From assembly GCA_031273825.1 (NCBI GenBank), contig JAISRB010000092.1, positions 1 to 52,163 of the forward strand: DNA of 52,163 nt, given 5' to 3'. The translations under genes and the position numbers were made by a program. The stretch comes from Clostridiales bacterium. Lineage in GTDB: Bacteria > Bacillota > Clostridia > Christensenellales > JAISNN01. Within the stretch, counting starts at the first letter, position 1. The number at the start of each line of letters is the position of its first letter. Below are positions 7,600-34,092 of this stretch, in pieces. The notes under the pieces were generated by a model, which saw nothing but the letters and a program-made list of their open reading frames with translations, ran no database searches and had not been told where the DNA came from.

Positions 7600-7868
7600 G
7601 GCTGTGCTAGGTGGGGAGCTAGCGGTGCCCTGTACCTGCAAACCGCTACAGCAGGACCGAAGGCCCGTGTCGGCGGTCGTGTGGAAAGTCTGACTTTGAT
7701 AAGGAATGTTGATATCAAGGTCCCATCCAATGTAAATCTGTGAACCATGTCAGGCCCGAAGGGGAGCAGCATTAAGCGGACAATTACATGTGCCATGGGG
7801 AAGCTTTGAAGGAGTCGCCTGTCATTAGTTCCGTTTCGGCATGACTGGTCAAAACGGGATGCACAGTT
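7600..7868 (+). ncRNA. ffs: Signal recognition particle RNA, long Bacillus-type (scRNA, with Alu domain)
   Basis: The 5' end GTGCTAGGTGGGGAGCTAGCGGTGCCCTGTACCTGCAAACCGCT closely matches the B. subtilis scRNA 5' domain. The domain IV motif GTCAGGCCCGAAGGGGAGCAGC is present. ctgtgc (7602-7607) pairs with gcacag (7861-7866). Length is about 269 nt. Confidence 0.9.
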
Positions 7869-13772: not shown

Positions 13773-15314
13773 TTATTTCGCCTTGACCGCCCAATAGCCG
13801 TCGCGCTTGCCGTTATTTCGTTCAAGCAAGCCTTTTTCTTGAAGTTTGTTCGTCAGCCTCTTTGCGGTTCTTTCTGATTTTTTGATATGCGCGGCAATTT
13901 CCTTTTGAGTCGCCCGCGGATTTTGACGCAGAAACTTTATGACGTTTTCTTCGTCCAAAGTATCATCATCGCCCAAAACACCATTCAAAGTGCCATTCAA
14001 AGTGCCATTATCATCATTCAAAGTGCCATCATCGCCCAAAACGCCGTTCAAAGTGTCATTCAAAGTGCCATCATCATCATTCAAAGTGCCACCATCATTC
14101 AAAGCGTCCTTTGATTGCGCCTTAAACCGCGCCGTATCAAACGAGTAGCTATCGTTGAGCGGTACTATTATCTTAAAAATATCGCCCTCGATAAATTGCG
14201 GCTCCTTGCCCGAATACAGCTTTGTATATTTGTATAGATTGCGCACGCCCGACCCGAGCGTATCGGCGTAGCCTATGTTTCGGAAGAACGCCGCTATTAT
14301 CGGATTCTTTGGGTTTGGGGTAAAGTTGTCGGGCGTAATCGCTCCTATACCCGCGGCGCGGTTGGCGTTCGACACATACATTTTATCCTTTTCAATCACG
14401 AAGTTAGCGATATATGAGCTTGTAAATTCGCGGTGCATAAGCGAATTGACAAGCATTTCGCGGGCTATCGCGCTTCTGAGCGACACTCTCGCGTCGCCGT
14501 CCAAATAAAACTTATCCCACAAATGCTTTGCGGCAAAGCCGATTAAAAGGTCATAGCTCTCTATCAGGTTGGTTTCTACTATAAGTCTGTCGTCGTAGCG
14601 GTCGGCGTTTACCTTGCGCAGCAACGCGTCCGTCAAATAAGTCGGGCAGACGGACTTTATGACGTCGTCCTTGCCGAGCAGCATTACCGCGGCGAGATTG
14701 TAGCCCGTTTTGCCCGTTTCCGCATCTCTGCCCATAAGCCCCGCGCTTATAACAAGTTCATTGTCCGACAAGCCCTTCCACGTGTGTTCAAATTGTCTGT
14801 TTACCGCCATTTGCCGAACGCGGGAAATTAAATCAAACCGCAGGTCGTTATCTTTTATATAAGGAAAAATCTTTTTTTCGGTATAAACGTTCTGTTTGCG
14901 GATATATAATTGTGCGATTTGTCCCGTCGCCGTGACCTTGACGTCGGCGTCGTCCACGCGGTCATAAATGGTTTTTTTGTAGGTGTGAACCTCCGACGAC
15001 GGCGGAATATGAATTTGAACGACGGTTTTGCCCTCATAATCAAAAGCCTCCGGTGCAAGATAAACCGTCGGATTTATTACCTCCTGATTGCCGACCATTT
15101 TTATAATATTTTTTATGATATCCGAAACCGCGTTTTTTGCAACGCCGCAAACCGTGCCGTTGTCCTCAACGCCAAAATAAATATCACCGCCGAAGCGGTT
15201 CAAAAACGAGCATATCGTCTGATATGTGTCGTCGTCAATCTTTCCTCCGCGCTTAAACTCAACCGCTATGTTTTCACCCACGGCAAGCGTCAGCCGAAAC
15301 CTTTTAACGTCCAT
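13773..15314 (-). CDS. AlbA_2 (Schlafen-like) domain protein with an HATPase_c_4-like middle region and a C-terminal winged-helix; often auto-annotated 'RecG-like helicase / transcriptional regulator'
   Basis: The N-terminus ENIAVEFKRG...TICSFLNRFGGDIYFGVEDNGTVCGV fits the AlbA_2 signature as I recall it. The C-terminal wHTH reads NPRATQKEIAAHIKKSERTAKRLTNKLQEKGLLERNNGKRDGYWAV. An internal GTLN/D-rich tandem-repeat linker is present. An AAGGGGA RBS precedes the ATG at 15314. Confidence 0.8.
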   Translation of the reverse strand: MDVKRFRLTLAVGENIAVEFKRGGKIDDDTYQTICSFLNRFGGDIYFGVEDNGTVCGVAKNAVSDIIKNIIKMVGNQEVINPTVYLAPEAFDYEGKTVVQIHIPPSSEVHTYKKTIYDRVDDADVKVTATGQIAQLYIRKQNVYTEKKIFPYIKDNDLRFDLISRVRQMAVNRQFEHTWKGLSDNELVISAGLMGRDAETGKTGYNLAAVMLLGKDDVIKSVCPTYLTDALLRKVNADRYDDRLIVETNLIESYDLLIGFAAKHLWDKFYLDGDARVSLRSAIAREMLVNSLMHREFTSSYIANFVIEKDKMYVSNANRAAGIGAITPDNFTPNPKNPIIAAFFRNIGYADTLGSGVRNLYKYTKLYSGKEPQFIEGDIFKIIVPLNDSYSFDTARFKAQSKDALNDGGTLNDDDGTLNDTLNGVLGDDGTLNDDNGTLNGTLNGVLGDDDTLDEENVIKFLRQNPRATQKEIAAHIKKSERTAKRLTNKLQEKGLLERNNGKRDGYWAVKAK

Positions 15315-25323: not shown

Positions 25324-26310
25324 TCACCGTTCGCCGCCGCATAACCTAAATTGTTTAATCAGCCGTTCCTTTATTTTATCCAAAAAGCCTTGCGGCCCCA
25401 GCACCCTGACGGTCGGGCCGAAGCTCAATATTCTGATAAGCAGCTCCGCTTCGTCGTCTAAGTCGTAGGATATTTGACAGGTATAAACGCCGCGTACTCT
25501 GTCGTATTCGGTCTTTCTGTCAAAGGAGGCGAACTGCAAAAAAAACCGCTCCGGCGCGTTTCTTTCGTTTGTTATCTCGAGCGTAATCGGCGGATTTGCC
25601 GACTGCTCCAAAAACAGCCGGCACAATTCTTCGCGCGATATGCGGCGGTTTAGTCCGGACGGCGCGGCGGATATGACGCGCCCGAGATTCAAGGTTCGCT
25701 TGACGGGCTTTTGAGCCTTTGCGTCGAATACGGCGCACAGCAGTCGGAATTTGTCGTCCAATTCGGAATAGCTGAGCTTGAAGGGGTAATAAGTCCGCTC
25801 CGATACGCCCGTCTTTTCGGCGGCGTAGGCGATTGCGACGGGGTAGCCGCCCTTGCAGGCCTTCAAAATTTCGCGGAAATTCGCGATATAGACCGCGTCG
25901 CCGTAAGGGTCGCCGTCAAGGCGTTTGTCCGCGGAGACAAAGTCGGCCGCGTCGAACGCGGGCGTGGTTTCCTTTAGCGCGCCGCGAAGCCTTGTCAGGC
26001 TTTCGCCGCTCAAAAACAGCCCTATTCGCGGGTCGTTAGTCAGGGCGGCAAGCCACGACAGCTCAAGCCGCGTCAGGGGCCGCTCAAAACCGCCGTCAAA
26101 TTTTGAATAATATAGGTCGCCGCGCCTTTCGAGAAAGCTCCATTCGCCGCCGATTAGCCCGGGCAGCAGATGAAACGCGGTTTCCGAAAAGCCGCGCTCG
26201 GCTATGATGCTCTCGATATCTTTTTTTGATATTCCGTCCCTCGCCGCGTTCAAAACGCGCGAAACGATTCCGAAATAACAGCCGTAAATTTCAGAAAAAA
26301 GCGCGCTCAT
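25324..26310 (-). CDS. WYL-type regulator paralogue B (degenerate WYL core plus WCX-like C-terminal domain)
   Basis: The WYL-like segment is RTYYPFKLSYSELDDKFRLLCAVFD...LNLGRVISA. The C-terminal segment LIRILSFGPTVRVLGPQGFLDKIKERL resembles the WCX extension of WYL regulators. Assigned by motif recollection only. Confidence 0.65.
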   Translation of the reverse strand: MSALFSEIYGCYFGIVSRVLNAARDGISKKDIESIIAERGFSETAFHLLPGLIGGEWSFLERRGDLYYSKFDGGFERPLTRLELSWLAALTNDPRIGLFLSGESLTRLRGALKETTPAFDAADFVSADKRLDGDPYGDAVYIANFREILKACKGGYPVAIAYAAEKTGVSERTYYPFKLSYSELDDKFRLLCAVFDAKAQKPVKRTLNLGRVISAAPSGLNRRISREELCRLFLEQSANPPITLEITNERNAPERFFLQFASFDRKTEYDRVRGVYTCQISYDLDDEAELLIRILSFGPTVRVLGPQGFLDKIKERLIKQFRLCGGER

Positions 26311-27542
26311 TCCTCCGTTCCTCCCGTTTTGTCTATTCCGTACATTTCAAACATGCGGCTAAGGTCGCCGCAAAGCCGCTTTTTGAGGCGGTCGGAGGCC
26401 TCAAAGGATATAATTCTGCCGATAAAGGTTTTGACCCACGGCATCGCCTCGTTCGCGTCAAAGACGGTCCTTGTAAATTTAAAGGTATTCGCCCCGACGC
26501 GCTCCAAAACGCCGCCTCTGCCCTCCTTGTTTATTCTGTTTATGATATAGCCCTCGCGCCCCTCGTCGATATAGAGAGTCATAGAGAAGCCCGTTTGGTT
26601 TCGCGATTCGCCGTCGAACGACACGCCCCAAACCTTGCCGATATTGCGCGAGAGAGCCTTTTGCGTTTCGTCATAGTTTTCGGCGGGGCCGACGGCTTCG
26701 ACGGATTTTACCGTGTCGAGGCGGTATGTAAAAAATCTCCCGGCCGACGGAATATACGCGCACAAATAGCGTCTGCCGCTTGACAGACCGCACAAAATTT
26801 TTGCGGGAACAACCGTGGGTTTTACCGTTTTTCCGCTTTTTGAGCCGACTAACGCTATTTCTATTTTTTCGCGTCCGCGTATAGCCGTCAGGATATCGTA
26901 TAATACCGCGTCCTCGAGCGTCTGCGCTATATAGCTGTGCTTAAAGACAAAGAGGTCGTTTACCGCGTCCGCGTTATCCAAAATATAGTTTCCGATTACG
27001 CCCAAGCTTCCGCCCTGAAAAAATTTGACCGCGTCTAACAGCTCTTTTTCGGGCTTGACGGCGTTTTGGGAAAGGCCGTAGACGTACTTTTTGCCTATTT
27101 TTTCTCTTGTCAGCAGACCTAAGCCGGCGTATTCGTTGCATTTTCCGCGCACGGTTTGCAGGTCAAACGACCTTTGGCTTTTTTGCGCAATTTCCTCGGT
27201 CAGCTCCTCCGCCGATTTGACGGCGGCTCTCAGCGCGTCAAAGATATAAAAGTGCAGCGTTATGTCGTTTGTCGTAAAGCTCTTGCTTTTCCACGCCGAA
27301 AACAGCGGGTTTGCCGGAATAGCTCCGCAGTCCGCCGAGACAAAGGAGACCTTGCCGCCGCCCGAATAAGTCCATTTCATCGCGTCGCCGAGATAGCTTT
27401 CGCAACGCCGCTTTTCGTTGTCGTAGGTACGCGCGGATTTTATGGAAAAATCGTCGCGCGTCTTGAAGCCGTATATATAGAAGTCGCGCATAAAGCTTCT
27501 TATCTTATTAAAATTTTTGATAAGCTCGGAAAATTCCGCCAT
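26307..27542 (-). CDS. WYL-domain transcriptional regulator paralogue A (N-terminal wHTH-like region, WYL, WCX)
   Basis: The WYL core is VVPAKILCGLSSGRRYLCAYIPSAGRFFTYRLDTVKSVE, and the C-terminal segment is EAMPWVKTFIGRIISFEASDRLKKRL. The stop overlaps the start of paralogue B by 4 nt (ATGA). Confidence 0.7.
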   Translation of the reverse strand: MAEFSELIKNFNKIRSFMRDFYIYGFKTRDDFSIKSARTYDNEKRRCESYLGDAMKWTYSGGGKVSFVSADCGAIPANPLFSAWKSKSFTTNDITLHFYIFDALRAAVKSAEELTEEIAQKSQRSFDLQTVRGKCNEYAGLGLLTREKIGKKYVYGLSQNAVKPEKELLDAVKFFQGGSLGVIGNYILDNADAVNDLFVFKHSYIAQTLEDAVLYDILTAIRGREKIEIALVGSKSGKTVKPTVVPAKILCGLSSGRRYLCAYIPSAGRFFTYRLDTVKSVEAVGPAENYDETQKALSRNIGKVWGVSFDGESRNQTGFSMTLYIDEGREGYIINRINKEGRGGVLERVGANTFKFTRTVFDANEAMPWVKTFIGRIISFEASDRLKKRLCGDLSRMFEMYGIDKTGGTEE

Positions 27543-27650: not shown

Positions 27651-27708
27651 TTCGCAAACTTTTTTATACGCAAAATCGGCAAAATCGTGTTTTCGCAAAT
27701 TTTTTTAT
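27651..27708. promoter_or_regulatory. Two 17-bp direct repeats TTCGCAAAyTTTTTTAT (27651-27667, 27692-27708), 41-bp period, in the WYL/rtcB divergent region; candidate operator
   Basis: Read directly, with one mismatch. A gcaaaatcg-gcaaaatcg mini-repeat lies between them. The proximal copy ends 23 bp upstream of the rtcB -10. Confidence 0.4.
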
Positions 27709-27728
27709 TCGATTATTCGCGGCGGCTT

Positions 27729-27737
27729 TGATATAAT
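27729..27737 (+). promoter_or_regulatory. Extended -10 (TGaTATAAT) of the rtcB promoter; weak -35
   Basis: TG 27729-27730, TATAAT 27732-27737, GGAGGG RBS 27746-27751, ATG 27770. Confidence 0.5.
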
Positions 27738-27769: not shown

Positions 27770-29002
27770 ATGCTTACGATAGAGAACGAACAAATGAAAT
27801 TTCCGATTAAGGCGTGGTTAAAGGACGCGGGTCAAGCCGACGGGACCTGCTTAGAGCAGGCGGCGCGTCTTGCGGGGCTGCCGTTCTTACATAAATGGGT
27901 CTGCTTAATGCCCGACGCTCACGCGGGAATGGGAATGCCTATCGGCGGCGTAATCGCGACAAAGGGCGTAATTATTCCCAACGCCGTCGGCGTGGACATC
28001 GGCTGCGGAATGGCTTATGCCGGCACGGACGTCAGGGTAGACGAAATAAAGAATATCTCCGTCGGCAACGGAAGCTTTATTCAGGCTCTCGTCGGCAACA
28101 TACTGCGCGACGTTCCCGTCGGCTTTAACCGCCACAAGACAAAGCAGGCCTGCGCGGCCTTAGACAAGGCAAACGCCGAAATGGATAAATACGCAAAAAA
28201 TCCCGGGCTTGCCGAGCAAATCGAGGCCGGATATTATCAGGCCGGGACGCTCGGCGGCGGCAATCACTTCATCGAAATTCAGCAATCCGACGACGGATAT
28301 TTGGGGATAATGATACATTCGGGCAGCCGCAATTTCGGCAAGCAGATATGCGATTATTATCACAAGGCCGCCCGCGCGCTCAACGAAAGGTGGTATGCTC
28401 CCGTTCCCGACGAGTGGCAGCTGGCGTTTTTGCCGACGGACAGCGAGGAGGGGCGGCAATATATCGACTGGATGAATCTCGCCTTAGAATTCGCCTATGA
28501 AAACCGCGCGCTGATGCTAAAAGCCGTAAAGGACATATTTGACCGCATGATGAAAAAATACGCGGACGCCGACTATCGGTATACCGACGAAATCAATTGC
28601 CATCACAATTACGCCGCCATAGAGCGGCACTACGACGCCAACGTGTGGGTTCACCGCAAGGGCGCGACGAGGGCGAGAGCGGGAGAGCGGGCGGTCATTC
28701 CGGGGGCTATGGGCTCGTTTAGCTACGTTGTCGAGGGCTTGGGAAACGCGGAAAGCTTTTGCTCAAGCTCGCACGGCGCGGGCAGACAATATTCGAGAAA
28801 GGCCGCGATGGAAAATTTTTCGACCGAACGGGTCATGCTCGACCTAAAGGAGCAAGGCGTGGTTTTGGGCAAGGCCGACAAGTCGGACGTCGCCGAGGAA
28901 AGCCGCTTTGCGTACAAAAATATCGACGAAGTAATGGACAATCAAAGAGACCTTGTCAAGGCCGTCACGCGTTTAAAAACCGTCGGCGTAGTCAAGGGCT
29001 AA
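27770..29002 (+). CDS. rtcB: RtcB-family RNA 3'-phosphate/5'-OH ligase
   Basis: Metal and GMP-site motifs are present: PDAHAGMGMPIGGV, GGGNHFIE, HSGSRNFG, NCHHNY and SSSHGAGR. Length is 410 aa. Confidence 0.95.
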   Translation: MLTIENEQMKFPIKAWLKDAGQADGTCLEQAARLAGLPFLHKWVCLMPDAHAGMGMPIGGVIATKGVIIPNAVGVDIGCGMAYAGTDVRVDEIKNISVGNGSFIQALVGNILRDVPVGFNRHKTKQACAALDKANAEMDKYAKNPGLAEQIEAGYYQAGTLGGGNHFIEIQQSDDGYLGIMIHSGSRNFGKQICDYYHKAARALNERWYAPVPDEWQLAFLPTDSEEGRQYIDWMNLALEFAYENRALMLKAVKDIFDRMMKKYADADYRYTDEINCHHNYAAIERHYDANVWVHRKGATRARAGERAVIPGAMGSFSYVVEGLGNAESFCSSSHGAGRQYSRKAAMENFSTERVMLDLKEQGVVLGKADKSDVAEESRFAYKNIDEVMDNQRDLVKAVTRLKTVGVVKG

Positions 29003-29159
29003 AAAAGGTATTAAGGGTCAACGCACCCCAAAAATACATTCGTTCTTATCCTATGCGGACGGTTTTCGACAAAAAGAGCCGTCGCGGCGCCTTTCGCCTT
29101 TGGCGTTTTAGGTGTGCCGGATAATAGCGGATTTTAGCCGTTAGCTTACATCTTAACGG

Positions 29160-29252
29160 CTCAAACAGAGACAGTATCGCGGGTTCAAATCCCGCACCGG
29201 GCAACCGGTTAGCTCAGAGGTAACAGCATGTCTAAATGAATTTCTTTTTGAG
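29160..29252 (+). ncRNA. Circularly permuted tRNA-like RNA element (YrlA-like tRNA mimic); core 29169-29233, true transcript ends unknown
   Basis: AGACA(29169-73)/UGUCU(29229-33) forms the anticodon-stem equivalent. Then come a 5-nt variable loop GUAUC, the T-arm GCGGG-UUCAAAU-CCCGC, an acceptor-like stem ACCGG-GCAA-CCGGU capped by a GNRA loop, UA, a 16-nt D-arm GCUC-AGAGGUAA-CAGC with GG, and A26. Every segment length matches canonical tRNA. An outer helix CUCAAA(29160-65)/UUUGAG(29247-52) is also possible. Confidence 0.75.
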
Positions 29253-29515
29253 AAAGAGACTGTCCTACGGATTTTAGGCAAAGACCTTCGGCGGCGCGCC
29301 GAAACCTTCGGCGCAAGCGCGGCGGCTTTTTTGCCGGCGGCAAGGGGATACCGCTTGTCGCGCCTTATACCCATAACGCTTTTGTTATATCGGGAGCGTA
29401 AGCCGGATAAGACCGCGCCAAGCTAAACCGTCGCCCCGCAAAAAAACCGCGAGGGTCTTTGACCGAAGGTCCAACTATCAAACGCTAAAAATCAAAAAAA
29501 AGGAGAACAAGAAAA

Positions 29516-30634
29516 ATGAAAATTATTATCAAGCAAAACGAGCGCGGCTTTTTATTTAAAAACGGCGCGTACCGCAGGCTGTTGCAGCCCGGCAAAAACG
29601 TAATATATCCATTCTTAGGCGAGACCTGCGTATTCGCGCCCTTAGACAAGCCGATCGACGTGCCGGGCGCCGACGCGGAAATTTTAATGGCGGACAAGGA
29701 CTTCGCTCAAAACGTCGTCAAAATCGACGTACCCGACGGCTGTGTGGCCGTTCGCTTTGAGGAGGGCAGAGTCGCGGGCGCGCACGACGCCGGCAGATAT
29801 TTTTACTTCAACTACTATCAAAACGTCACATACAGGCTTTTTGACGTGTCAAAGGCGGAAATCGAGGGCTTGACCCCGGAGCAAATCAACCGCCTGCCGC
29901 GCGAGCTTTATATCAAGATAATCGTCGCCGAGGGCGAGACGGGGCTGTTGTTTTTGGACGGCAAATTTAGCCGCGCCCTAAACGCGGGCGCGTATTATTT
30001 CTGGAACACAAAGACCGCCGTGACCTGCGAAAAGGTCGATTTGAGAAGTCAGGAGTTAGATATCGGAGGGCAGGAGATTTTGACCGCCGACAAGGTGTCG
30101 CTGCGCGTAAACTTCGTCGCAAGCTACCGCGTCACCGACGCGGTCAAAATGATAAGCGAGGTCAAAAACTACAAGGAGAGGATTTATACGGTGACTCAGC
30201 TTGCCCTGCGCGAGTATATCGGCAAGTTTCGTTTTGACGAGCTTTTGGAGCAAAAGGACAACATCGCGTCAAGCGTGTTGTCGCGGCTTCAAGCCCAAAA
30301 CGGGGAGCTTTGCGTCGAGTTTACAAGCGCGGGCTTAAAGGACGTAATTTTGCCGGGCGAAATCCGCGAGATTATGAATACCGTTTTGGTCGCGGAGAAA
30401 AACGCGCAGGCCAACGTCATCGCCCGCCGCGAGGAGGTCGCCTCGACGAGAAGCCTTCTCAACACGGCAAGGCTCTTAGACGAGAACGCCACGCTTTATA
30501 AGCTAAAGGAGCTGGAGTACTTAGAGAAAATCTGCGACAAGGTCGGCTCTATTTCGGTCGGCGGCGGCAACCTCTTATCGGAGCTTCAAAAAATCGTCGG
30601 CATAACGCCGGCAACAAAACAAAAAGCAAACTAA
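29516..30634 (+). CDS. SPFH/Band-7 (stomatin/slipin-like) domain protein
   Basis: The Band-7 core reads EILTADKVSLRVNFVASYRVTDAVK...AQANVIARREEVASTRSLLNTARLL. An AAGGAG RBS is present. I see no N-terminal TM helix and no NfeD partner gene. Confidence 0.8.
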   Translation: MKIIIKQNERGFLFKNGAYRRLLQPGKNVIYPFLGETCVFAPLDKPIDVPGADAEILMADKDFAQNVVKIDVPDGCVAVRFEEGRVAGAHDAGRYFYFNYYQNVTYRLFDVSKAEIEGLTPEQINRLPRELYIKIIVAEGETGLLFLDGKFSRALNAGAYYFWNTKTAVTCEKVDLRSQELDIGGQEILTADKVSLRVNFVASYRVTDAVKMISEVKNYKERIYTVTQLALREYIGKFRFDELLEQKDNIASSVLSRLQAQNGELCVEFTSAGLKDVILPGEIREIMNTVLVAEKNAQANVIARREEVASTRSLLNTARLLDENATLYKLKELEYLEKICDKVGSISVGGGNLLSELQKIVGITPATKQKAN

Positions 30635-30937: not shown

Positions 30938-31285
30938 ATGATATTATATCGTCCGGTAGGGCAAAAGGAATTGGACTTGATAGAAAAAAGCCGATATAAG
31001 GAGTTTCCGCCGAGGCTTGAGGGGCAGCCTATTTTTTACCCGGTCGTGAATAAGCAATACGCGCGGCAAATAGCAAGCGAATGGAACGTTAAAGACAAGC
31101 TTTCGGGTTATATCGGCTATGTTGTGGAATTTGAAGTTGACGACGGATATTTGAAACAATACGATATTAAAACGGTCGGGGCGGGCGGGCATAAAGAATA
31201 TTGGATACCCGCCGAAAGGCTGGCGGAGTTTAACGGTCATATAATCGGCCGGATAAGGGTGCTTGAAAAATTTGAAAGCGCCTAA
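30938..31285 (+). CDS. Conserved hypothetical 115-aa protein (YRPVGxKELDLI...FPPRL...QPIFYPV...EYWIPAE family)
   Basis: The sequence type is familiar to me from many bacterial genomes as an uncharacterised family, but I cannot name the family. An AGAGGA RBS is present. Confidence 0.7.
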   Translation: MILYRPVGQKELDLIEKSRYKEFPPRLEGQPIFYPVVNKQYARQIASEWNVKDKLSGYIGYVVEFEVDDGYLKQYDIKTVGAGGHKEYWIPAERLAEFNGHIIGRIRVLEKFESA

Positions 31286-31310
31286 GGAACGAAAACCGAG
31301 GGTTTTTGCA

Positions 31311-31628
31311 ATGTTATTTAAGATGGCAAACGGTATGTGCAGGCTAAAAAAGAAAAACAAGCAAGAGCCGGTTTTTATTCAAAAGCAAGAAACTCCGCCC
31401 GAGCCGCAGTTTAGAGAGGAGACCGTCGCCGTCGTGTGGGGAGAGGACAAGACGCGGTATTGCGAGGTGTTTTTTAAACACGGTTGTTATACATATTACG
31501 GCGAGCAACTTTTTTATGATGACGACGAGGGATATTATTGGTCGCCTAAGTTCAATATGTCCGTAAGCTTTTTTGACACCCTCGACAAGGCAAAGCAAGC
31601 GGCGGAAGCTTTTTTGCGGGGGGAATAA
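31311..31628 (+). CDS. Hypothetical small protein
   Basis: ORF in an operon context. The ATG at 31311 has GAGGG upstream, whereas the track's TTG at 31263 overlaps the previous gene. The stop overlaps the next ATG (TAATG). Confidence 0.5.
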   Translation: MLFKMANGMCRLKKKNKQEPVFIQKQETPPEPQFREETVAVVWGEDKTRYCEVFFKHGCYTYYGEQLFYDDDEGYYWSPKFNMSVSFFDTLDKAKQAAEAFLRGE

Positions 31629-32272
31629 TGAAAACCGTTAAGCTTGAAACAAACGAATATGTTTTGATTAACGAAATCGATATTTCCGAGGATATCGGTT
31701 TGTGCTTATCCGAAATAAAAGAGATAGACGGCGTTTGCGAGAGAAAGCTTGAAAAGGCCGTAAAGCACATTCCGACGGTTGTTCAATTTGTTGTCGGCTT
31801 AGGTGCTTTGACGGTATTGACCGCCGTTTTGATTGTTATAGCCTTTATAAACAAGGAATTATTTTGGTTGTTTTATATCGGCTTATTCGGGGCGGCGTGG
31901 ATTCCTTTGATTGCTTTGGTATTCCGTTGGGAATTCAAAAAGAAAACGACTTTTTTGAAGACCGCCGATATCTATCCGGCGCAGATAACGGGAATGCGCC
32001 GAGAGGAAGAGGCCGTCGATTCGGAGGACGTGATAATGCACGATTATAGATATGCAATCGATTATAATTTGTTTAAGGGCGATGAGATTATCAAGGGGAC
32101 GTTCAAAATGAGAGCCGCGAGCCTTTTCCGCAATTCCGTCGGTTTGGAGGAAGGTCTATATAATTATTACTGCACAAAAAGATATATGTTGATGCTGTTT
32201 AACCCAAAAAACAAAAGAGTCTATCCCGTGCGTTTATATAAAAAACAAGGAATGCCGCATGAAATATTATAA
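31628..32272 (+). CDS. Hypothetical membrane protein (2 TM helices)
   Basis: A GGGGGGA RBS is present. The hydrophobic segments are VVQFVVGLGALTVLTAVLIVIAFI and LFWLFYIGLFGAAWIPLIALVF. Confidence 0.6.
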   Translation: MKTVKLETNEYVLINEIDISEDIGLCLSEIKEIDGVCERKLEKAVKHIPTVVQFVVGLGALTVLTAVLIVIAFINKELFWLFYIGLFGAAWIPLIALVFRWEFKKKTTFLKTADIYPAQITGMRREEEAVDSEDVIMHDYRYAIDYNLFKGDEIIKGTFKMRAASLFRNSVGLEEGLYNYYCTKRYMLMLFNPKNKRVYPVRLYKKQGMPHEIL

Positions 32273-33059
32273 ATTGAGCTTTAGAGCAAAAAAAGACGAT
32301 TTTGACCGTGACGCCGACGTCTATTTAGTAGAGGAGTATTTGGGCTGTCTTTATAAAAACGGACAAATAGTAGATTATGACGGCATGTTTGTCAAGGACG
32401 GTTTTGTATATTGCCACGCGACCTTGCCCGAGGCGGACGCGCTGTCAAGGACAAACGACAACAAATATGTCGCGGAAGGGCGTGATAAGGTCGGGCAAAT
32501 ATTTGAAATCGGCTTAGAGGAGCCGCTCGGCGACGATTGGCACTTGGACTTGGAGGCTTGCCGCTGTGAGTCGCCGAGCCGTTATATGCTCGATTGCGGC
32601 CCTTGCCATGACGACAGCCCGATAACCTGTTGCGATTGCATGTCTCCGATTCCGCTCTATAGACTGCCAAAAATATTCGGCGAGGAGGAGTTTTATACGC
32701 TTCGCGAATTTGAAAGAGAATGCAAGGCAATCGGGGAGCTGTGGCTGTCGGGTCTGAATGATAAATTTACCTTTAAGCAGAGAAACGACCCGTCCTCGCA
32801 ATTGGCCAAAAAAGGCCGCAAAATCTGCAAGGCCTTTGAAAAAGCGACGGGAAAGCCGTTCTATTATTTTTTATCGTTTGACTATTGGTCTTTTTTTTAC
32901 GACAAAAAAGACAACTGTCAAGAACACCCCGCCCCTAAGGAATGTCCGTCCTGCGGCAAAAATTGGGAGGTCAAAAAAGGGGAGTCGGTTGTCGGATATA
33001 GGTGCGACGCTTGCCGGCTACTCTCCCAAAAAAACCGAGATTTGCAAGCGGAGGAGTGA
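32259..33059 (+). CDS. Cys-rich Zn-ribbon protein (DUF2310-like by recollection)
   Basis: The Cys clusters are [27 protein letters not shown] and CPSCGKNW...YRCDACRL. The N-terminal ...NGQIVDYDG...[10 protein letters not shown] resembles the DUF2310 pattern. It overlaps the previous gene by 14 nt. Confidence 0.6.
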
Positions 33060-33162: not shown

Positions 33163-33238
33163 TGGTGGAGATGAGGGGGATCGAACCCCTGACCTATGCG
33201 TTGCGAACGCATCGCTCTACCAACTGAGCCACACCCCC
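33163..33238 (-). tRNA. tRNA-Ala (anticodon CGC)
   Basis: The reverse complement is GGGGGTG-TG-GCTCAGTTGGTAGAGC-G-ATGCG-TTCGCAA-CGCAT-AGGTC-AGGGGTTCGATCCCCT-CATCTCC-ACCA. It contains the G3:U70 alanine identity pair. Confidence 0.9.
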
Positions 33239-33256
33239 AAAAAAATTGACAATATG

Positions 33257-33265
33257 ATTATATCA
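33257..33265 (-). promoter_or_regulatory. Extended -10 (TGaTATAAT) for tRNA-Ala
   Basis: The minus strand reads tatgaTATAATcatattgtcaattttttt followed by the tRNA. Confidence 0.45.
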
Positions 33266-33362
33266 TATTTTTTGAGAAAAACAAAAGATTTTTGCGGGGT
33301 TTTTAAAAAAAGTTAAAAAACGGCGCGGAATCTAAACTCAAACGACCGGCGCGGCAAGGCTC

Positions 33363-33470
33363 ATAGTTCAAAAGGTTTGAGCGGATACGCAAGGGCGGAG
33401 GGCGGAGGGCGGTTTGCGAGGTTTAATACCGCAAGGTTTATAGTTCAAAAGGTTTGAGCGGATACGCAAG
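33363..33470. repeat. Two 31-bp perfect direct repeats atagttcaaaaggtttgagcggatacgcaag (33363-33393, 33440-33470) with a (ggcggag)n tract between them
   Basis: Read directly, with a 77-bp period. The region is intergenic between tRNA-Ala and the tRNA operon. Confidence 0.85.
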
Positions 33471-33566
33471 AGCGGCGCTACGGAGGCTCAAAATAGCGCG
33501 TCGGGGGCGGTTTATAAATTTAAAAGCCTAAATTTCAGGGTTTTTATCTTTTTTGCCTCAAATCAT

Positions 33567-33595
33567 TTGACAAACATAGTTTTTTCGTATAAAAT
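33567..33595 (+). promoter_or_regulatory. SigmaA promoter of the tRNA operon
   Basis: TTGACA (33567-33572), a 17-nt spacer, then TAAAAT (33590-33595). Confidence 0.65.
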
Positions 33596-33642
33596 AATAT
33601 GGCTGTGAAAGTGTGGTAAAAGGTTTGTCGCAGTTTTTACGT

Positions 33643-33718
<76 letters not shown>

Positions 33719-33741
33719 TTTTTTTATTCTTTTATTTTTTT

Positions 33742-33818
33742 GGCGGCGTAGCTTAGCAGGTTAGAGCAGTCGGTTCATACCCGGCAGGTCGTCGGTTCGA
33801 GTCTGACCGCCGCTACCA
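33742..33818 (+). tRNA. Elongator tRNA-Met (CAU)
   Basis: The cloverleaf is GGCGGCG/CGCCGCT with anticodon loop TTCATAC. The overall sequence resembles B. subtilis elongator Met rather than Ile2 (by recollection). Confidence 0.8.
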
Positions 33819-33821
33819 CAC

Positions 33822-33896
33822 GGCCCTATGGTCAAGTGGTCAAGACATCGCCCTTTCACGGCGGTAACGGGAGTTCGAACCTCCCTAGGGTCACCA
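33822..33896 (+). tRNA. tRNA-Glu (UUC)
   Basis: Acceptor stem GGCCCTA/TAGGGTC, anticodon loop CTTTCAC, T-arm GGGAG-TTCGAAC-CTCCC, then CCA. Confidence 0.9.
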
Positions 33897-34016
33897 CTTC
33901 TTTGAAACCGTGTTTTATGTCAAAAGAACGCCTTAGCGGCGTTTCCTCATAAAGCACCTCTTTTTTTGTACGGTACGATAATTCACGGCGCTTGCCTTGA
34001 TTTATAATACCATTCC

Positions 34017-34092
34017 GGGAGCATAGCTCAGTTGGTAGAGCATCTGCCTTACAAGCAGAGGGTCACAGGTTCGAGCCCTGTTGTTCCCACCA
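34017..34092 (+). tRNA. tRNA-Val (UAC)
   Basis: Acceptor stem GGGAGCA/TGTTCCC, anticodon loop CTTACAA, T-arm ACAGG-TTCGAGC-CCTGT, then CCA. Confidence 0.9.

Follow-up and report, generated by a model that had tools for sequence, protein, structure and literature searches.

This analysis concerns a tRNA-like element on a 52,163-nucleotide (nt) stretch of DNA from a Clostridiales bacterium (contig JAISRB010000092.1 of assembly GCA_031273825.1), which we call the window and whose coordinates are those of the forward strand. The fold at positions 29169-29233 (+ strand) is far beyond chance and represents a conserved, circularly permuted tRNA look-alike. This unit is one domain of a conserved structured RNA of ~460 nt, from ~29010 to ~29470, located between rtcB, which encodes an RNA 3'-phosphate ligase (27770-29002, +; Pfam RtcB, E 7.6e-115), and a gene for a stomatin-like SPFH/Band-7 protein (29516-30634, +; Pfam Band_7, E 3.8e-36); the end of rtcB lies 160 nt upstream of the element and the start of the Band-7 gene 280 nt downstream of it. 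We consider it fairly probable that 29169-29233 is the tRNA-mimic domain of an operon-embedded noncoding RNA that forms the RNA subunit in a repair particle with RtcB and Band-7. A first-pass annotation, made from the letters alone, had instead delimited an element of ~90 nt closed by an outer helix; this delimitation was not upheld, and viewing the element in isolation had missed the larger RNA, a prior prediction of such RNAs and the rtcB/Band-7 context, which explains the element.

The unit is read 5' to 3' as one strand of the anticodon-like stem, the variable loop, the T-arm, a closed acceptor-like hairpin, the equivalents of U8-A9, the D-arm, the equivalent of A26 and the second strand of the anticodon-like stem. 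The anticodon-like stem (all segments on the + strand) pairs AGACA (29169-73) with UGUCU (29229-33). The variable loop is GUAUC (29174-78) and the T-arm is GCGGG-UUCAAAU-CCCGC (29179-95), followed by the acceptor-like hairpin ACCGG-GCAA-CCGGU (29196-29209), which has a stem of 5 base pairs (bp) and a 4-nt GCAA loop. The dinucleotide UA (29210-11) corresponds to U8-A9, the D-arm is GCUC-AGAGGUAA-CAGC (29212-27), with three Watson-Crick pairs and C.C at 13:22, and A 29228 corresponds to A26. Every segment of the permuted fold that the first-pass annotation had listed was found at its position. The stretch 29169-29233 has no CCA end, no discriminator and no anticodon-loop sequence. Six ordinary tRNAs were found in the window by ARAGORN, none of them at 29160-29252; neither ARAGORN nor the Rfam tRNA model (RF00005) calls a tRNA at the site, which agrees with the earlier expectation that a tRNA finder would fail there, and an Rfam search at gathering thresholds is also empty there. 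ARAGORN calls no transfer-messenger RNA (tmRNA), and the Rfam tmRNA model matches the T-arm alone, at 17.3 bits versus a threshold of 47. The element is thus neither a tRNA nor a tmRNA, as had been proposed from the missing CCA.

We collected relatives of the locus by using the Band-7 protein as a query against one genome per GTDB species, which gave 80 loci (numbered with an L below), nearly all from Clostridia. Three covariance models were used: R1, a model of the tRNA-like unit; R2, a model of the 3' domain described below, in which the window is included; and R3, built from 43 homologous, Band-7-associated units with the window and its closest relative excluded. R3 scores 29167-29236 at 62.9 bits (E 2.3e-17 over 52 kb), and its only other matches in the window are to tandem tRNA genes at 19.5-25 bits (33678-33776 at 25 bits). 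We examined the helices on alignment A1, made with MAFFT from 45 units of diverse Clostridia. The four helices are paired in 88% of cells, compared with 62% when partners are shuffled and 37-44% when partners are slid by 1-3 columns, although the percentage is inflated for the T and acceptor-like stems, since the units were picked by a regular expression demanding that these two be perfect; the bias spares the D and anticodon-like stems and the variety of pair types. Two-sided changes occur in 16 of the 19 pairs, and the covariation score is 0.688 versus 0.206 for shuffled partners. The first-pass annotation had named homologues without compensatory changes as the finding that would speak against the fold; compensatory changes are present in all four helices. 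The anticodon-like stem, for example, changes from GACAG/CUGUC to AUGAU/AUCAU, GGUAG/CUACC and UGAUA/UAUCA. The columns for U54, U55, C56, A58, G53-C61, A14, G18/19 and A21 are invariant and those for U8, A9, G15 and C48 nearly so; these are the nucleotides of the tRNA tertiary contacts.

Two details of the earlier description proved to be of limited extent. A closed acceptor-like stem is present family-wide, with unrelated sequences and a stem of 4-8 bp, but the GNRA tetraloop is a local trait, the loops of homologues measuring 3-10 nt. The candidate outer helix CUCAAA/UUUGAG (29160-65/29247-52, +) does form in the minimum free energy fold of 29150-29260 and has a compensated counterpart, UCCUU/AAGGA, at the same place in the closest relatives, L001 and L006; the remaining relatives have none, so the helix, which we regard as tentative, is not a feature of the family. 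Its first base is shared with the conserved hairpin at 29137-29160.

Band-7 is the constant partner of the unit in these loci. R1 finds a match upstream of Band-7 in 76 of the 80, and in nearly every locus the T-arm, closed hairpin and D-arm are located 300-450 nt upstream of the Band-7 start. Three gene orders were observed: divergent genes for WYL-family regulators followed by rtcB-RNA-Band-7, as in the window; WYL-WYL-RNA-Band-7-rtcB; and RNA-Band-7 in which no rtcB separates the RNA from the WYL genes. In the 76 loci, the RNA sits directly upstream of Band-7 irrespective of whether rtcB precedes it, follows it or is not seen on the retrieved DNA. The WYL pair is nearly always adjacent; in most loci it keeps synteny with the RNA and Band-7, and it occurs in two orientations. 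The fold, its conservation, its synteny and its likeness to the module of the Y RNA YrlA, discussed below, are established computationally.

The number of units varies among these loci. A strict parse with the regular expression gives one full unit in 60 loci, two in 8 and three in 3, and some loci bear an additional lone T-arm. Tandem units keep the elbow nucleotides, and the presence of one to three units per locus with the elbow kept points to selection on presenting a tRNA elbow. The tandem arrays also give weak Rfam tRNA matches of 30-40 bits, which extend from the D-arm of one unit to the T-arm of the unit that follows. Arrays of two or three units are seen at L013 2341-2600, L063 2267-2520, L015 2563-2760, L016 2580-2720 and L026 2500-2730; in L013, L015 and L063 the open stem of the last full unit is replaced by a local anticodon-type hairpin, and a lone T-arm follows the array in L013, L016, L026 and L063. 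The number and topology of the modules are therefore plastic.

Such tRNA-like units also occur beyond the loci retrieved with Band-7. A pattern scan of GTDB genomes for a T-loop, a short spacer and TAGCTNAG gave at least 120 loci from many phyla. Among the matches listed, many are true permuted units by R1, and many adjoin Band-7 and/or RtcB homologues, in Proteobacteria, Bacteroidota, Acidobacteriota and Paenibacillus. The RNA family is present in cultured gut Clostridia, including Enterocloster, [Clostridium] symbiosum, Blautia and Anaerocolumna, which makes it experimentally accessible.

The spacer between rtcB and Band-7 is conserved in blocks along its length, and two structured domains flank the tRNA-like unit (all features on the + strand). 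The 5' domain (29015-29123; ~150 nt) contains a hairpin whose sequence varies among relatives (29015-28), the motif CCUAUGC (29050-56), a helix GACGG/CCGUC (29058-62/29079-83), the motif GCGGCGCC (29084-91) and a helix at 29087-92/29110-15 with compensatory changes in three of its six pairs among 38 loci. In relatives, the domain is laid out as a variable hairpin, then GCGGYGCC, then the equivalent of this last helix. The 3' domain (29336-29470, ~135 nt; its register was corrected by eye) consists of three nested helices, 29336-41/29430-35, 29353-62/29414-23 and 29364-71/29405-11, in which RNAalifold identifies compensatory changes in 16 of 18 pairs among 33 loci. These helices enclose the invariant GGAUACCG (29346-53) and other single-stranded motifs that are conserved; conserved motifs of the domain further include CCAUAAC, GCCGGAUA, CUAAAC and CCCCGC..CGCGAGG. 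The octamer GCCGGAUA occurs in both domains (29116-23 and 29402-09), each time at a conserved position, and the two copies could be two instances of one protein-binding site. A conserved hairpin, GCCGUUA/UAACGGC (29137-29160), lies just 5' of the unit and has equivalents of other sequence, recognized by eye, in L001 (GCAGU/ACUGC), L004 (GCGGU/ACCGC) and L005, L008 and L009 (CUCCG/CGGAG). At the 3' edge of the conserved region is a short, conserved hairpin CCGC-N9-GYGG followed by 3-5 U. In loci of the Oscillospiraceae type, an alignment of ~450 nt folds into many conserved helices and begins just past a TAAAAT box.

R2 scores the 3' domain of the window at 71.8 bits, the window being part of the model; it matches Clostridial loci only and finds nothing in Band-7 loci of other phyla. 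The flanking domains have no match in Rfam 15 at gathering thresholds, and a permissive search of 28900-29600 gave only chance matches for the flanks. Genome annotation currently overlooks the family for lack of an Rfam match. In the literature, compared without Burroughs and Aravind 2016, we found no account of the flanking domains. As separate observations, the invariant motifs of regions 29010-29130 and 29336-29470 are GCGGYGCC, GGAUACCG, CCAUAAC and CUUAAC, and a direct repeat, CGGAUUUUAG, brackets the tRNA-like unit at 29128-37 and 29268-77; its 3' copy is kept in close relatives and its 5' copy is not, and the repeat is probably fortuitous. Two candidate features were rejected. A long-range pairing of GGUAU in the 5' domain with AUACC of GGAUACCG in the 3' domain was discarded because the 5' strand covaries with a local partner, GUGCC, while GGAUACC stays constant. 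The U-rich GCGGCGGCUUUUUUGCCGGCGGC (29318-41) was ruled out as a terminator hairpin, since its arms lack complementarity and the stretch belongs to the conserved 3' domain.

The closest known relative of the unit is YrlA's tRNA-like domain (RF02553; Chen et al. 2014, PMC4201824; structure by Wang et al. 2018, bioRxiv 10.1101/312249). Both have the same order of variable region, T-arm, closed acceptor-like stem-loop and D-arm, closed by an anticodon-like stem; both share the tertiary-contact nucleotides, lack CCA and an anticodon loop, and are encoded within an rtcB operon. The Rfam YrlA threshold is reached by three among the matches listed from the pattern scan (L106 at 77.9, L128 at 73.8 and L083 at 69.9 bits), and with R3 these verified YrlA domains obtain 60.2, 62.2 and 70.0 bits, respectively. 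Since these values are in the range of the window's score, the module of the window is a YrlA module, and the topology that the first-pass annotation had recognized is confirmed. YrlA is modified by TruB (pseudouridine 55) and DusA (dihydrouridine) (PMC4201824), and one proposal is that it competitively inhibits an anticodon nuclease (PMC7790460).

A tRNA-like or YrlA-type RNA next to Band-7 and RtcB, without Ro, had already been predicted according to bioRxiv 10.1101/312249. That source credits Burroughs and Aravind 2016 with the prediction of b7a-tRNA, a tRNA-like RNA adjoining Band-7 and RtcB which, in its paraphrase, 'strongly resembles an authentic tRNA', and it adds that the RNA next to Band-7 is occasionally YrlA. 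By this account, the window RNA shares with b7a-tRNA its noncoding, tRNA-like nature and its position beside Band-7/SPFH and RtcB genes. The paraphrased description also sets the two apart, since the window unit is permuted and missed by ARAGORN and RF00005; the window locus further differs in its predicted regulation, by WYL proteins and not RtcR, and in having large flanking domains without an Rfam match. The window is an example of the YrlA-type RNA next to Band-7. We found no later work on Band-7-associated tRNA-like RNAs in the literature. Units in canonical order were found in L110, L082 and L114. The locus in Pseudomonas sp. 21 (L110 5540-5720, -) carries RtcR, two canonical-order tRNA-like units, Band-7 and RtcB; the acceptor ends of the units are paired (GGCGCGG/CCGCGCC and UUCGA/UCGAA), their anticodon-type hairpins are short, and a sigma-54-like TGGCAC-N5-TCGCT precedes them. 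This arrangement agrees with the account of b7a-tRNA in bioRxiv 10.1101/312249. From their sequence, we take the L110 units to be the non-permuted counterpart of the window element.

The closest PDB sequences to the Band-7 protein are stomatins and QmcA, and its N-terminal 135 amino acids (aa) also match Band_7, as a partial second SPFH start (29516-29920). No hydrophobic membrane anchor was seen on reading the protein sequence, and the product may be a soluble SPFH protein. Two genes for WYL-family regulators (411 and 328 aa; 25324-27542, -; Pfam WYL and weak WCX, PADLOC WYL models) are transcribed divergently from rtcB; the 411-aa protein has no sequence relative in the PDB. PADLOC gave no defence-system match for RtcB or Band-7, and only generic WYL models. 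The probable control region of the operon (27651-27737, +) has two copies of TTCGCAAAnTTTTTTAT (27651-67 and 27692-708) followed by TATAAT (27732-37). The TTCGCAAAnTTTTTTAT motif is also found directly upstream of the RNA in loci where rtcB does not intervene (L010, L028, L029, L031, L036, L059, L065, L075 and L077), and the WYL regulators probably use the repeats as their operator. On the + strand, the interval from rtcB to Band-7 shows no sigma-70-like promoter or intrinsic-terminator-like site, from which we infer that the RNA is co-transcribed with rtcB and Band-7.

Under the explanation that we favour, the RNA would probably be transcribed together with rtcB and Band-7 from a promoter under the WYL regulators. 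The unit folds into a tRNA-like L-shape in which the T-loop and D-loop form the elbow and every standard tertiary contact is present; a hairpin seals its acceptor end, and its open anticodon stem continues into the rest of the RNA. The two structured domains, seen only in loci of the Clostridia type, would take the place of a Ro-binding stem and would probably anchor the RNA to an SPFH oligomer. The elbow would act as a handle or decoy that recruits, or competes for, tRNA-recognising proteins, the candidates being RtcB, tRNA-modifying enzymes and tRNA-cleaving toxins; RtcB is a candidate because a tRNA body with an open anticodon stem resembles a tRNA cut in the anticodon loop. A bolder proposal, which is possible but which we hold with considerable reserve, is that an undescribed class of large RNA (5' domain, one to three modules, 3' domain) joins a soluble Band-7 oligomer and RtcB in a vault- or Ro-like repair particle, where the permuted tRNA bodies would mimic anticodon-nicked tRNAs and either dock RtcB or trap tRNA-cleaving toxins. 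In the vault, a large protein assembly, the shell protein contains an SPFH-like domain and the assembly is paired with a small structured RNA, and Burroughs and Aravind have reportedly linked vault and Ro ribonucleoproteins to bacterial repair systems. The comparison with the vault particle (major vault protein, TEP1/TROVE, vault RNA) is an analogy only, as the Band-7 protein here is stomatin-like and not a major vault protein.

Several points weigh against a trans-acting RNA subunit. Its binding partners and function are inferred here. The RNA reaches to ~50-70 nt from the Band-7 start codon with no clear terminator, which leaves room for a purely cis-acting leader role, and since the 3' domain is restricted to Clostridial loci, anchoring cannot be proposed as a general mechanism. 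Under tRNA-cleaving conditions, Salmonella yielded no detectable YrlA fragments (PMC7790460), which argues against a role as substrate and is compatible with a role as decoy.

The main rival takes the whole ~460-nt element as the 5' leader of the Band-7 mRNA, acting in cis: in response to a protein or an RNA, for example damaged RNA, RtcB or a factor that binds tRNA, it would control Band-7 expression as a riboregulator and would have no role in trans. Such a leader would account for the position of the element, which in every case directly precedes Band-7, on the same strand and with no terminator-like site in between; in Oscillospiraceae-type loci, the RNA begins right after the promoter-like TAAAAT and constitutes a 5' untranslated region, and the CCGC-N9-GYGG hairpin with its U residues could be a weak regulated terminator. 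This putative terminator has just 4-5 bp, however, and the ribosome-binding site is in an unstructured, A-rich and poorly conserved spacer, giving no sign of sequestration. A variable number of tRNA-like modules would be unusual for a riboswitch-type sensor, and YrlA is likewise operon-embedded, yet acts as a stable processed RNA (PMC4201824). We judge a solely cis-acting leader to be unlikely, though cis and trans roles are not mutually exclusive.

It is far less likely that the element is a genuine YrlA Y RNA, bound by a Ro60/Rsr protein whose gene lies elsewhere in the genome, even though the tRNA-like module of the element is indistinguishable from that of YrlA and the visible DNA is 52 kb of the genome. 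Aligned with the Rfam YrlA model, as the first-pass annotation had suggested, the tRNA-like core fits well, but in the outer Ro-binding stem the pairs are marked non-canonical, and the RNA as a whole (29150-29257, the best match in the permissive search of 701 nt at 28900-29600) scores 23.4 bits versus the gathering score of 69 (E 0.017), a threshold that none of 20 related loci reaches. The motif GNCGAAN0-1G, which binds Ro60/Rsr in the YrlA stem formed by the 5' and 3' ends (PMC4201824), is absent from 29003-29515. No TROVE domain was detected by Pfam in the neighbours or in any of the 19 open reading frames (ORFs) of at least 330 aa in the window, and no rsr gene is nearby, in agreement with the earlier statement that there is no Ro gene here; L106, with its classic layout of RtcR, Ro (TROVE and vWA_Ro60), YrlA and RtcB, was the positive control for TROVE detection. 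YrlA is furthermore a discrete RNA of 80-130 nt, whereas conservation in the window spans ~460 nt, which argues against a discrete gene of 100 nt: the flanks are conserved as a different structure, with the 5' and 3' domains joined to the module, relatives carry tandem units, and the constant partner across 76 loci is Band-7.

An even slimmer chance is given to a permuted pre-tRNA or RtcB substrate, in which the ends of the open stem would be cut and joined by RtcB into a circular intermediate, as in Cyanidioschyzon, and the acceptor opened by RNase P to yield a tRNA-like product. This idea draws on the adjoining gene for a ligase that joins tRNA halves, on the YrlA of M. smegmatis, which has a 7-bp acceptor stem and is cleaved by RNase P and has CCA added (PMC4201824), and on the acceptor-like stems of 7-8 bp in some family members. 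In the window, however, the stem has 5 bp and a 4-nt loop, within a family range of 4-8 bp, there is no discriminator, CCA or anticodon-loop sequence, and the sequences on either side of the anticodon-like stem form conserved structure of their own; permuted tRNA genes of the Cyanidioschyzon type, in contrast, consist of complete tRNA halves, with an anticodon loop and a 7-bp acceptor stem, that a processable linker connects. Finally, decayed tandem tRNA genes or a chance likeness without function, to which the weak match of tandem tRNA genes to the unit model (33678-33776, 25 bits) might lend colour, has a negligible probability and is refuted by covariation and synteny, given 62.9 bits from a model excluding the window, compensatory changes in all helices, invariant tertiary-contact nucleotides in 45 units and a fixed position relative to Band-7.

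The Clostridial family keeps the tRNA mimic, swaps the Ro protein for SPFH/Band-7, adds large RNA domains and sometimes multiplies the mimic. The separation of the mimic from Ro speaks for the tRNA elbow itself as the part that functions in RNA-repair operons, and it bears on the role of the tRNA-like domain of bacterial Y RNAs and on the repair substrates of RtcB in bacteria. The tRNA-like domain of tmRNA and viral tRNA-like structures likewise imitate the T-arm and elbow of a tRNA as part of a larger RNA; they differ in having a free, aminoacylatable CCA end, while the acceptor of the window unit is sealed and no tag reading frame is present.

Genes downstream of Band-7 (30938-33059, including DUF2310) were considered as members of the system and rejected, as they are not conserved in related loci. 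One ORF of 121 aa in this region (31263-31628), downstream of Band-7 in the window, has a homologue (49% identity) at L006 611-886, where it stands between the tRNA-like unit and Band-7. The window also contains three unrelated features: a cluster of five tRNA genes (33163-34092), whose tandem Met tRNAs are an expected weak false match to the unit model, a gene for a Schlafen AlbA_2/helix-turn-helix protein (13773-15314) and a large bacterial signal recognition particle RNA (7602-7866, 172 bits).

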